From Octopus vulgaris (lineage: Eukaryota): a DNA stretch of 64,000 nt. This document shows positions 27,192 through 39,304 of the stretch, in pieces. Position numbers and translations under genes: made by a program. The DNA is taken from the NCBI GenBank assembly GCA_951406725.2, contig OX597830.1, positions 45,074,001 through 45,138,000 of the forward strand. Direction: 5' to 3'. Position 1 is the stretch's first letter. Each line of letters starts with the position of its first letter. The notes under the pieces are model-generated. The model worked only from the letters and a program-made list of their open reading frames with translations. It did no database searches and had not been told where the DNA came from.

Positions 27192-27262
27192 TACAGCGAC
27201 CGGGAATCGACCCCAGGCCGACCGCGTTGTAGGCAAGCATTCTACCACTGAACCATCGATGT
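27192..27262 (-). pseudogene. tRNA-Gly-derived pseudogene
   Basis: 71 nt, acatcgatggttcagtggtagaatgcttgcctacaacgcggtcggcctggggtcgattcccggtcgctgta, colinear with eukaryotic tRNA-Gly(GCC). Anticodon loop and T-loop are mutated. Confidence 0.8.
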
Positions 27263-33836: not shown

Positions 33837-34745
33837 TATATTGGATTCGGCAAAAGCCACATAATTAAAGTATGAAAGTGGACAAGTGTCTTCCACTATA
33901 GCCTCGGGCCGACCAAAACCTTGTGAGTGGATTTGGTAGACGGAAACTGAAAGAAGCCCGTCGTATATATACATATATACTTTTTTCTCAGGAACTATTA
34001 GACCTGACACCATGTAGTAACCGGTGTTGTTCAAACGATGAATAGCTTAGCGTAAACCATGGTCCGTTTTGTTCTCTTACTTTATTATCATCTTATAATC
34101 ATCTCATAATAATGACTTTTATGACTCGTATTACTACCTCAGTCAATCTAAATGTATATATTTGTCTTTACCTGTCATAAATAGCCTTTTTTTTATTTGC
34201 AATGTGCATTTTCGTTTATTTTTCATACTTTACCCCTATATCTCTTATTATAAAAGGCAGATTTTATCTGCCTCCCTTTGGGAGTTATACAAATCTACAA
34301 TATAGCATTTCTTCAATTACAATTTACCTTGCATTTTTAAGAGTACAATGCATCGCGTCATGCCAGCTCCAGTTTTTAAAATTTAAACTCCAGTTAAGCA
34401 AAATTTACAGAAAACTCACATTCTGGTGTGTGTGTCAAATGCTTTTCTTAGTCTGGTTTACACCACACGCAAACGCACACACACAGTGGGCAACGAATAA
34501 AACGAAACTAATTGACTTACTGTAGTGAGTGATTCTTTCACTCTGCCTCCCACTTCTTCTTTCCACACAGACACGCAAATATATAAATAAAATTGTAAGC
34601 TAACGTGCGTGTGTGTGAGTGGGTGTGTGTGGGTGTGCGCGTGTGTGTGTATGTTTGAGGGTGCGTGTGTGTGTGCGTGTGCGTGAGTGTGTGACAGGAA
34701 AGTTTTTTTACGACGAATATAACACCTATATCCAAGTAGCAGAAA

Positions 34746-35442
34746 GATAAGACAGTAAGGTGTGATTTGAGGGAGATTTGGCTGCTATTTCTACCATGTC
34801 TAGCTGCCATGTAGGGGTCTCCCTCATAGGCTCATACATACATATATACATAGATAAGACAGTAAGGTGTGATTTGGGGGAAATTTGGCTGCTATTTCTA
34901 CCAGGTCTAGCTGCCATGTAGGGGTCTCCCTCATAGGCTCATACATACATATATACATAGATAAGACAGTAAGGTGTGATTTGGGGGAAATTTGGCTGCT
35001 ATTTCTACAAGGTCTAGCTGCCATGTAGGGGTCTCCCTCATAGGCTCATACATACATATATACATAGATAAGACAGTAAGGTGTGATTTGGGGGAAATTT
35101 GGCTGCTATTTCTACCAGGTCTAGCTGCCATGTAGGGGTCTCCCTCATAGGCTCATACATACATATATACATAGATAAGACAGTAAGGTGTGATTTGGGG
35201 GAAATTTGGCTGCTATTTCTACCAGGTCTAGCTGCCATGTAGGGGTCTCCCTCATAGGCTCATACATACATATATACATAGATAAGACAGTAAGGTGTGA
35301 TTTGGGGGAAATTTGGCTGCTATTTCTACCAGGTCTAGCTACCATGTAGAGGTCCCCCTCATTGGCTCATATATATATATATACATACATAAGACAGTAA
35401 GGTGTGATTTGAGGGAGATTTGGCTGCTGTTTCTACCAGGTC
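34746..35442. repeat. Minisatellite, ~6.5 x 107 bp
   Basis: gataagacagtaaggtgtgatt recurs with period 107; identical ORFs at 34824, 34931, 35038 and 35145. Confidence 0.95.
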
Positions 35443-35808
35443 TGTTAGGCCTTCTCATGTAAACTCAAGCTTTCTCATGCCTTCAACATATGACCAAAGC
35501 AGAGAATGTATTCTTTTATTCTTCTGCTTTTTCCAGCCATTGGTCTGTGGCCATGCTGGGGCAATGCCTTGAAGAATTGTAGTTTAATGAATCAACTCCA
35601 GTTTTATTTTTGTAAGCATTGTACTTATTCTATCTGTTTCCTTTGTCAAACCACTAGGTGACAGGGATGTAAACAAACCAACATTCGTTGTCAAGCAGTG
35701 GTGGAGGACAATCACAAGCACAGACACGCACACACACACACATACATGCATACACATATACACACATACATACATACATACATATATATATATGTGTGTA
35801 TATATATA

Positions 35809-36130
35809 TTGCAGCGTGGAAGGTGTTTGTAAGCCATTTAAGAAACACGCAAAAACCGTTACATTCACTTCAACATTTAAATTTAATTTGCCAAAATATT
35901 TTCGTCGCTTTTAGACCGCGACCTGTTCACTGACAAAAATATCGTGCTAACAGGTCGCGGTCTCAAAGCGACGAAAATATTTTGACAAATTAAATTTAAA
36001 TGTTGAAGTGAATCTAACGGTTTTTGTGTGTTTCTTAAATGGCTTATAAACACCTTCAACGCTGCAACTGTTTTCGTTCCAGCACACGATCTCAGATCAA
36101 GTCACTTGCTATGCAAGTACATCTCTGTAA
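35809..36130. mobile_element. Fold-back element: 119-bp inverted arms with a hammerhead-like motif, embedded in (TA)n
   Basis: Arms 35809-35927 and 35949-36067 with a 21-bp spacer; the right arm extends to ~36130. Confidence 0.85.
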
Positions 36131-36139
36131 CTATATATA

Positions 36140-36175
<36 letters not shown>

Positions 36176-36235
36176 TAAAAACAGTAAGATAACAAAAGAA
36201 AGAAAGAGACCTCAATATTATGTAAATAGAGGAAA

Positions 36236-36630
36236 TCTTTATATATAAAAGTGAGGTTGTGTGTCTGTCTCCTACGATTTAGATTCCTAACTACTCCCAC
36301 ATTTTGCGGTGCAGTTTTACCAAAACCGGGTATCTTATAGTCGTGATTCATATCGAGACCGTCTGGGTATTAGCGCGCGTCTACGATGAGTCTACGATTT
36401 AAAAAAAAAATTACCATCAATTTTTCCCATTTTTAATCCATTTTTGACATATATAAGGGAAGTAACTCTCTAAAATTTATTATTAAATCTCAGAACGTAA
36501 ATAGCTACAGTAACACCCCTCCCCCTTTGTGGTTAGCCATATTGAGATGGCTATTATACTTTACATCTCTAAAAATGCTTATATAATTATTTCCCTTACA
36601 AACCCGAGCAACGCCGGGCGATACTGCTAG
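36236..36630 (+). mobile_element. Non-autonomous Helitron (second 5' type)
   Basis: a|TC...cccgagcaacgccgggcgatactgCTAG|t. Confidence 0.85.
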
Positions 36631-37025: not shown

Positions 37026-38219
37026 GTGATTAATTCGCAATTTTATAACCTAAAGGCAGACATATATACGTTACTAAAATGAAGAAGGGCACCGATTAGT
37101 GCCCTTGTTCACTTTAATGACGTATACCTACCTACACACATATAATATGCATGTATGTATTAGTTTGATGCTCGGTAAGGAGACAGAGAGAAGATAGTGA
37201 GTTGTTGACGTTTCGAGAATAGTTCTTCGTCTGAAAGGAAAACGGATAAGTCCATCCATAGAAGGAAAAAATTAAAAAGCACATATATATGTACGTATTT
37301 GTGTATGTATGTATGTTTGCATGCATGAATGTATATATGTAAAAGAAAATGAGACAAAAGAGTAAAGGATTATTATATGAATAACGAAAAATACATACAA
37401 GGTGAAGACCTTCAAATATAAAGTGGAAGGGAGTCATAACAAAGACTGTATTATAATAAATTGCCGTGAGAAGAGTAGCAATGAACGCTGAAAAGTAAAA
37501 AAGAGAGTGGAATAGTCCAGAGTAAATAGATAAGCACTGATCCACTTTGTTACATGGAAATGCAAACGAAAATAAAAGGATTAAAGATATGACACCTGAG
37601 TGATGTTTTAAAGCTATATAAGGGATTAAGATTAAAGAGGAAAATAGTGTTTGTGTGTGCAACACGTGTGTTTGTATGTACGTGTGTACGTGTACATGTG
37701 CGCGAGTGTTTCCTGGTAATAGATAAGTATTAATCTATTCAAACAGCTGGTGGTATATCTCCCAGTGTTTCCAAAATTATTTGTCAAAGTGGTGACATTT
37801 CGTATTTGGATAATCTGTAAATTTGTTATTGCAATTATCATTTCAACATGAGACTCTTTTCTGTTATCCATATTCTGCAACATTTTGCACCATTTCCGGA
37901 TGGCCGGAATCTCTCGAGCATTTTCATTTAGATACTGAAATCAGTAGCCTGCCTTTCAAGCTACAGACATGATTAGTTTTGATATTTTCTTTTGCTGTTT
38001 GATGGAGTTGACCACTGCTTCCCCCAGTATCCCAAAACTAAGATATATTCGTTTATGTTTCTGCATAGTTGGCCTTAGTTTATTTAGTTTACATATTATT
38101 AAGTTTCCATAAAGGACTACGACAGAAAATTAGTTTAAAATTGCTTCTATAGAAAAATATAGAGACAAGCAAAAATATTTCGTTACGACTATATTTGGAA
38201 ATTTAGGGCTCAAAACATA

Positions 38220-38730
38220 TCTATATATATAAAACTCTAGTTGTGTGAGTGTCTGTCCCCTTCGATTTAGATTCCTAACTCCTCCCACATTTTGCGGTGC
38301 AGTTTAACCAAATTCGGGTATCTTATAGTCGTGATTCATATCGAGCCCGTCTGGCTATTAGCGCGCGTCAACGATGAGTCTACGATTTCAAAAATAATTT
38401 AACATCATTTTTTTATTCCATTTTAATGCATAATTTTTCGTGTGTCGATGGCGGCGGAGTTGGCGTCCACGCTCACAGCTGCACCTGTTTGCTTCTCCCC
38501 CTTCCCTCCCTCGTGAAGCTGTGGGGTAGGGAGTGTAAAAAAATCAACGTCGTAATGCGTTGTCAAGGAGACCAGCGTTCTTTTAGAACAACGACTTCAT
38601 GGCTTGAAGACACCAAAACAGAAATGGCTAAGAAAGCCCGAATTGGCATCTATAAGGGAAGTAACTCTCTAAAAATGCTTATATAGTTATTTCCCTTACA
38701 AACCCGAGCAACGCCGGGCGATACTGCTAG
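38220..38730 (+). mobile_element. Non-autonomous Helitron with an extra internal segment
   Basis: Same ends as 36236-36630; different interior at ~38430-38650. Confidence 0.85.
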
Positions 38731-39304
38731 TTTTTCATAATTTAAAATTAACTGGCAACACTTTGTCTAGATTTCTTTAATTACCTAAAGTCAGCAACTC
38801 GTTTAGGTATAGAATTAATGAGTTCTGAAATTGTAATTTGGTGTATTTCTGATCATGTTTAGTGTAACTTATTCAGCAATTCTGATCATGCTTCTGGTGA
38901 TTTTGCCTTGTTCCGTATCGTAATTGCCACACGGGTTCTATGAAGAATCTGGTTTCGCCAATGAACTAGTTTCACGACATTTTCTTTTTTCCATTCTTTT
39001 TTTTTATTATTTTTACTGTGTGATAGAAACTCACCTTCTATATAAAAATAAAAATAAAAGCAACATCGTTTTCCAAAATGACCTTTTGAAAATATTTGCC
39101 AGCAGTTCCACATTTCCTATATTTCCATATCGCAACATTTCCACATTTTCCACATATTCTTGCGTATTCCACATCTCCACATTCTCACGCTTCCACAGTT
39201 TCATATTTCTACATTTCCATATCCATGCAGAATCTTCTTTCAATCTGACAAGACTTATCACTCTCCATCACTCCTACGCACAATTTTCTCTACCACTATG
39301 CTCT

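Follow-up and report, generated by a model that had tools for sequence, protein, structure and literature searches.

A minimal type I hammerhead motif with a swapped G3:C8 core in a Penelope-like retroelement family of Octopus vulgaris

Background

Minimal type I hammerhead ribozymes have been described from metazoan Penelope-like retroelements by Cervera and de la Pena (2014, PMC4209133). The motifs of that account lie within the pseudo-LTR, carry an unpaired nucleotide lying between 9 and 10.1, a G10.1-C11.1 pair and a palindrome at 15.2-16.2, are presumed to work as dimers, and are encountered mostly in solitary or inverted truncated copies; the family reported here shares each of these traits. 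Minimal Penelope-like hammerheads are described there as cutting weakly, as dimers. A second close system is the hammerhead of PAc, a lizard Poseidon element (Frangieh et al. 2024, PMC11167929), which, like the motif studied here, is positioned beside the start of the ORF with its tail inside the ORF start. Unlike PAc, the element here carries a linker, CX3CxxC, of the kind seen in Neptune/Nematis.

The conserved core of the hammerhead includes a pair between positions 3 and 8. Position 8 works by its 2′-OH, which is placed by the 3:8 pair, and the G8C substitution is very damaging yet partly rescued by C3G (PMC6155905, PMC8495972). In the lizard Penelope-like hammerhead, protein-assisted cleavage is abolished by C3G and by G8C, and is regained in part when the two are combined (PMC11167929). 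Because position 8 acts by its 2′-OH and is held by the 3:8 pair, the chemistry allows a G3:C8 core. Natural U3:A8 pairs have been published, as a compensatory change at 3:8 by Perreault et al. (2011, PMC3088659) and as a natural covariant in PMC4209133, whereas the family here has the full swap to G3:C8, fixed in a young and high-copy family; no mention of G3:C8 was found in the text of these papers. In PAc the C3G/G8C swap is a laboratory control, whereas here it is the natural sequence. In the running text of the literature searched, G3:C8 appears as engineered variants only, and no natural G3:C8 was found there. Descriptors built on CUGANGA or CYGANGA would miss a GTGAACA motif, as the original prediction maintained (descriptors in PMC8557442); CYGANGA is still the name given to the box in a 2026 survey (PMC13481778).

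The motif in the window

The window is the whole stretch of DNA that was analysed, 64,000 nucleotides in length. The letters of the hammerhead-shaped motif on its minus strand are exactly as originally written, and can be divided as follows, the whole being recognized by sequence, descriptor with shuffles, and fold, and its parts by sequence.

35887..35937, minus strand: minimal type I hammerhead motif with a G3:C8 core (GUGAACA)
35937-35931, minus strand: stem I, 5′ strand
35930-35924, minus strand: GTGAACA box
35923, minus strand: unpaired G, position 9a
35922-35918/35908-35904, minus strand: stem II, 5 bp
35903-35901, minus strand: G12-A14
35900-35895, minus strand: palindrome AATATT (AAUAUU stem III)
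35894, minus strand: U17
35893-35887, minus strand: stem I, 3′ strand

The whole 64-kb window was scanned with a descriptor that accepted any Watson-Crick 3:8 pair, and this motif was the sole match; 150 block-wise dinucleotide shuffles gave two loose matches in total, both U3:A8, and none equally strong. The minimum-energy fold predicts stems I and II at -13.2 kcal/mol (z -2.29), a value equalled by 4 of 200 shuffles. U4, G5, A6 and A9, G12, A13 and A14, A15.1-U16.1 and H17 (here U) are all in place, as are the unpaired 9a, the G10.1-C11.1 pair and the palindromic stem III listed in PMC4209133. The literal C3 and G8 of the CUGANGA box are absent and are replaced by G3 and C8, which are able to form a Watson-Crick G-C pair and presumably do so. 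The predicted cut falls between 35894 and 35893. Sequence, descriptor, shuffles and fold together bear out the initial identification of a minimal type I hammerhead homolog. An Rfam search of the motif returned no hammerhead match, a null result that is uninformative because canonical-core relatives (L170 and L040) also gave no hammerhead among the matches listed (150 of 167).

Elsewhere in the window, a tRNA-like match of 41.3 bits at 27192-27262 (minus strand) probably represents a tRNA-derived repeat, and a degenerate hammerhead-like sequence at about 37195-37240 (minus strand), which was recognized by eye and belongs to a different repeat family, failed the descriptor.

The window copy as Helitron-type cargo

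Helitrons start with a 5′ TC, finish with a 3′ hairpin and CTAG, and enter an A|T target without duplicating it. The copy of the motif in the window is a truncated, head-to-head passenger fragment inside a 2.4-kb repeat of this type, with the following components.

34241..36630, plus strand: non-autonomous Helitron-type repeat of about 2.4 kb, of which the fragment is cargo
34745..35443, no strand assigned: 107-bp minisatellite, 6.5 copies, also Helitron-type cargo; its copy number differs among copies of the repeat
35809..35948, minus strand: pseudo-LTR copy, 5′-truncated and tail-less, with the entire motif and the opening codons of the ORF
35949..36130, plus strand: second, inverted pseudo-LTR copy, truncated within the core (it begins at position 6), as read from the sequence
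36068-36130, plus strand: optional 'tail' of about 63 nt of the second pseudo-LTR copy, then (TA)n
36236..36630, plus strand: putative shorter internal Helitron-type unit with its own TC start, which, judging from end motifs, supplies the 3′ end of the composite

The first codons within 35809..35948 are recognized from two loci (L201 and L202) in which the pseudo-LTR continues into the ORF, whose start there lies 57 nt after U17. The two pseudo-LTR copies form a 119-bp inverted repeat (35809-35927/35949-36067) of 95% identity, and the motif stands at the inner end of one arm. The original prediction noted that the opposite arm contains TGACAAA as a perfect partner for stem I; such a partner exists, but it sits in the second, plus-strand copy and is no same-strand folding partner. 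TGACAAA is the commoner family allele, and on a minus-strand transcript its arm is antisense to the motif.

The carrier shows a 5′ TC, a 3′ hairpin at 36603-36618, CTAG at 36627-36630 and an A|T target, and from these end rules we take it to be a non-autonomous Helitron. The 29 other top genomic matches have its flanks in common, in whole or in part, as far as about 34237 and 36644; both or one of the Helitron-type ends are shown at 19 of 29 loci, and other copies include head-to-tail tandems and have no target duplication. Partial, older matches to the short unit 36236-36630 are found at 38219-38731 of the window.

The cargo junction has 637 exact genomic matches, and GTGAACA is present in 98 of the 100 Helitron-borne matches listed. 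This retention, together with the intact motif, might be taken to mean that the window copy functions as a ribozyme in the processing of Helitron-type repeat transcripts or those of a host gene. The Helitron-borne copies are, however, 98-99% identical, so that no selection is needed for their retention of GTGAACA, and the plus-strand partner is cut within its core. Moreover, a minus-strand transcript through both arms is modelled as a single hairpin of -185 kcal/mol, versus -130 kcal/mol with the hammerhead stems forced. The prediction is therefore that the antisense arm locks the window copy up in the 119-bp hairpin, and this copy is unlikely to work; we regard an activity of this particular copy as highly improbable.

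The parent Penelope-like element

The ORF of the parent element encodes a reverse transcriptase (RT) followed by a C-terminal GIY-YIG endonuclease, which is the EN+ Penelope-like layout. The GIY-YIG domain is matched by Pfam in one of the two element proteins scanned; the RT is read from a YVDD motif and from relatives labelled reverse transcriptase, with no Pfam RT match. The protein has 272 homologs, the nearest of which (P0002) is 57% identical and bears the source label of an Octopus vulgaris reverse-transcriptase-domain protein. Its CX3CxxC linker is of the CX2-5CxxC form that elements of the Neptune/Nematis clade, otherwise placed by RT phylogeny, have ahead of the endonuclease.

Pseudo-LTR sequence lies about 1 kb behind the RT-endonuclease ORF and also directly ahead of its start, and the window motif is confirmed as the hammerhead of the pseudo-LTR in a young RT and GIY-YIG Penelope-like retroelement family. 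A near-full-length copy (L220) has, on one strand, a motif, a frameshifted ORF and a second motif, the spacing of the motifs being 4261 nt, and also holds a truncated copy in inverted orientation; a single transcript could therefore hold two motifs. Of the 28 insertions examined, 15 were scored with an inverted partner (one of them from a short motif alone), 14 have the optional tail of roughly 60 nt, and 18 show a (TA)n run behind the 3′ end. Partial tandem pseudo-LTRs, inverted 5′-truncated copies, an optional tail and (TA)n targets are described as Penelope-like anatomy (PMC8557442).

This anatomy also bears on whether the motif is a chance resemblance within a terminal inverted repeat that belongs to a MITE or foldback DNA element, a suspicion raised by the AT-rich and repeat-laden window and by the 119-bp inverted repeat in which the motif lies. 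Such an explanation has a negligible probability: none of the 150 shuffles yielded an equally strong match, both arm ends vary among insertions, and many copies are single. It is ruled out by the pseudo-LTR sequence that flanks the RT-endonuclease ORF.

Several structural peculiarities have been noted among the copies. In L035, L036, L042 and L057 the head-to-head arms often differ in their loop-II subfamily variant, as if derived from two templates. At L222:6634-7950 (G000:C28) eight G3:C8 motifs follow each other in tandem on the same strand, spaced by 166-192 nt with (TA)n between them; six have G10.1-U11.1 and one has a broken G12, and the array resembles a retrozyme-like array or a DNA-level amplification. 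In L051 the pseudo-LTR is joined, upstream of the motif, to the antisense of an uninterrupted coding start, presumably that of a dCMP deaminase, and the same junction is present on a contig of run X10; a captured host mRNA is a possible source. A branch-point-like CTAAC, a pyrimidine tract and an AG are located about 20 nt upstream of the core in L074:1455-1495 and in other long copies, and most truncated copies start at or just past this AG. An intron ending there is possible, or a start site, as in Penelope of D. virilis.

Conservation of the G3:C8 core

A family pattern in which positions 3, 7 and 8 were left free gave 3458 exact matches outside the Helitron, and the backward-pattern control gave none. 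The number is a count of arms and not of insertions, and exact matching biases it to young copies. G3:C8 is present in 3198 of the 3458 (92.5%) and C3:G8 in none. Another 166 have G3 without C8, among them 84 with G3:G8, and 94 are not G3, nine of these being C3 and each of the nine having C8. Loci collected by other routes give the same picture: GTGAACAG is found in all 33 cores at 30 loci (some overlapping) located by the endonuclease protein, irrespective of the motif, and in 33 of 34 cores at loci located by the upstream DNA, where three of 30 loci have no core. No alternative letter at a share of at least 5% is seen at position 3 or 8 on contigs from four sequencing runs with four organism labels. 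GTGAACA is hence the family norm and no private mutation of the window copy.

Mismatched cores are unevenly distributed, G3:G8 (84) being about nine times commoner than C3:C8 (9). G3:G8 copies are spread over all subfamilies; none occurs among the 100 Helitron-borne copies listed. Their origin as one ancestral subfamily is unsupported, since they are found with every loop-II variant. The notion that G3 arose only in the inverted arm, by template switching, proved to be an artefact of searching with C3, and G3 is normal in single and tailed copies.

Related families and polarity

The swap extends beyond the one family: it recurs in an older relative, while C3:G8 is found in families with the same scaffold. 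The older family was retrieved with a six-pair stem II pattern that gave 19 matches, of which one young-family copy was dropped and 18 were kept; core letters other than 3, 7 and 8 were preset in this pattern, and their conservation is thus not independent. Thirteen of the 18 have G3:C8, three A3:C8, one C3:C8 and one G3:A8, and none has C3:G8. These copies are old fossils; across the block aligned with the young family their identity to it averages about 56% (dropped copy included), and downstream of the motif ten of the 18 match the pseudo-LTR of the young family with z above 4. The two families differ in N7, in loop II and in the stem III palindrome (AAUU versus AAUAUU), and in stem I the sixth pair reads G-C versus U-A, by weak majorities (nine and eight of 18).

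Canonical C3:G8 cores on the same scaffold, with GUCAC/GUGAC in stem II, number 238 matches to a pattern that required C3:G8. One of them (L170) is situated about 370 nt behind a homologous endonuclease remnant (E 6.9e-12), and nine of 27 canonical-core copies have weaker similarity downstream. A tree of the downstream sequence, with four of 33 inner branches supported, gave neither polarity nor a single origin. G3:C8 would be the derived state on the footing that C3:G8 is the general rule, and the swap is presumably a selected compensatory change.

Predicted cleavage by the swapped core

The family-wide G3:C8 core is a real variation on an established ribozyme, borne by an element of an established kind, and it would likely cut itself weakly. 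It is our preferred reading, and a reasonably probable one, that the family motif is a compensated, slow ribozyme dependent on a dimer or on protein. Here the G3:C8 motif would adopt the active-site fold of the hammerhead and slowly cleave after U17, a dimer may form through the AAUAUU palindrome, and the element's protein probably helps cleavage. In the lizard Penelope-like element the protein is needed for cleavage, insertion in vitro can proceed without cleavage, and RNA with ends at the site was not found (PMC11167929).

Some features speak against cutting. The cleavage site reads UUU, and the modelled fold pairs G3 with U17 as a wobble that lengthens stem I and is 1.4 kcal/mol better than the open core, a state resembling the inhibitory C3-G17 state of PMC3884650. 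That paper also states, as data not shown, that G17 suits an engineered G3-C8 better than C17 does. The modelled dimer is less favourable than the best two-strand fold by 4 to 5 kcal/mol, core contacts being unscored in the calculation.

The wobble would also suit a hammerhead descendant that no longer cuts, in which the core changes were fixed by drift or by hitch-hiking in a master element, and the stems persisted as a structure beside the ORF start that serves protein binding or packaging, or because the region overlaps a splice acceptor or promoter. The branch-point/acceptor-like sequence about 20 nt upstream, and an ORF that begins 57 nt after U17, would be in keeping with such an overlap. 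In the one element tested, insertion in vitro is independent of cleavage (PMC11167929), and successful Naiad elements are described without canonical hammerheads (PMC8557442). Within the family, the 84 G3:G8 matches, present in all subfamilies, against 9 C3:C8 imply that a paired core may not be needed for transposition, and the G3:G8 copies fit a motif that transposition can do without. Against this, two transversions restore exactly the known 3:8 pair in families that are only about 56% identical, C3:G8 is absent from the matches, none of the families found is fixed for a mismatch, and stem III is still palindromic despite its changed sequence. That diverged families have retained a compensated core speaks for selection acting on the fold of the active site. 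We consider the loss of cleavage to be unlikely, if by no means far-fetched.

Implications

A bolder view, advanced only tentatively and somewhat doubtful as a whole, is that an animal would here provide the first G3:C8 hammerhead that is both natural and active: a retroelement lineage would have passed from C3:G8 to G3:C8 long ago and kept the swap through successive families and in several related species, the single-mismatch copies (84 G3:G8, 9 C3:C8) would record how the exchange of a catalytic base pair can come about, and CYGANGA surveys would be blind to whole families of such ribozymes. If the motif cuts, nature uses the full 3:8 swap that is known as a laboratory rescue control, hammerhead censuses that use C3/U3 descriptors undercount, and elements scored as hammerhead-less deserve re-examination. 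The finding also bears on whether Penelope-like elements need their hammerhead. This young family makes that question directly testable, as its almost intact protein, its naturally mismatched copies and relatives with a canonical core occur together in one genome.
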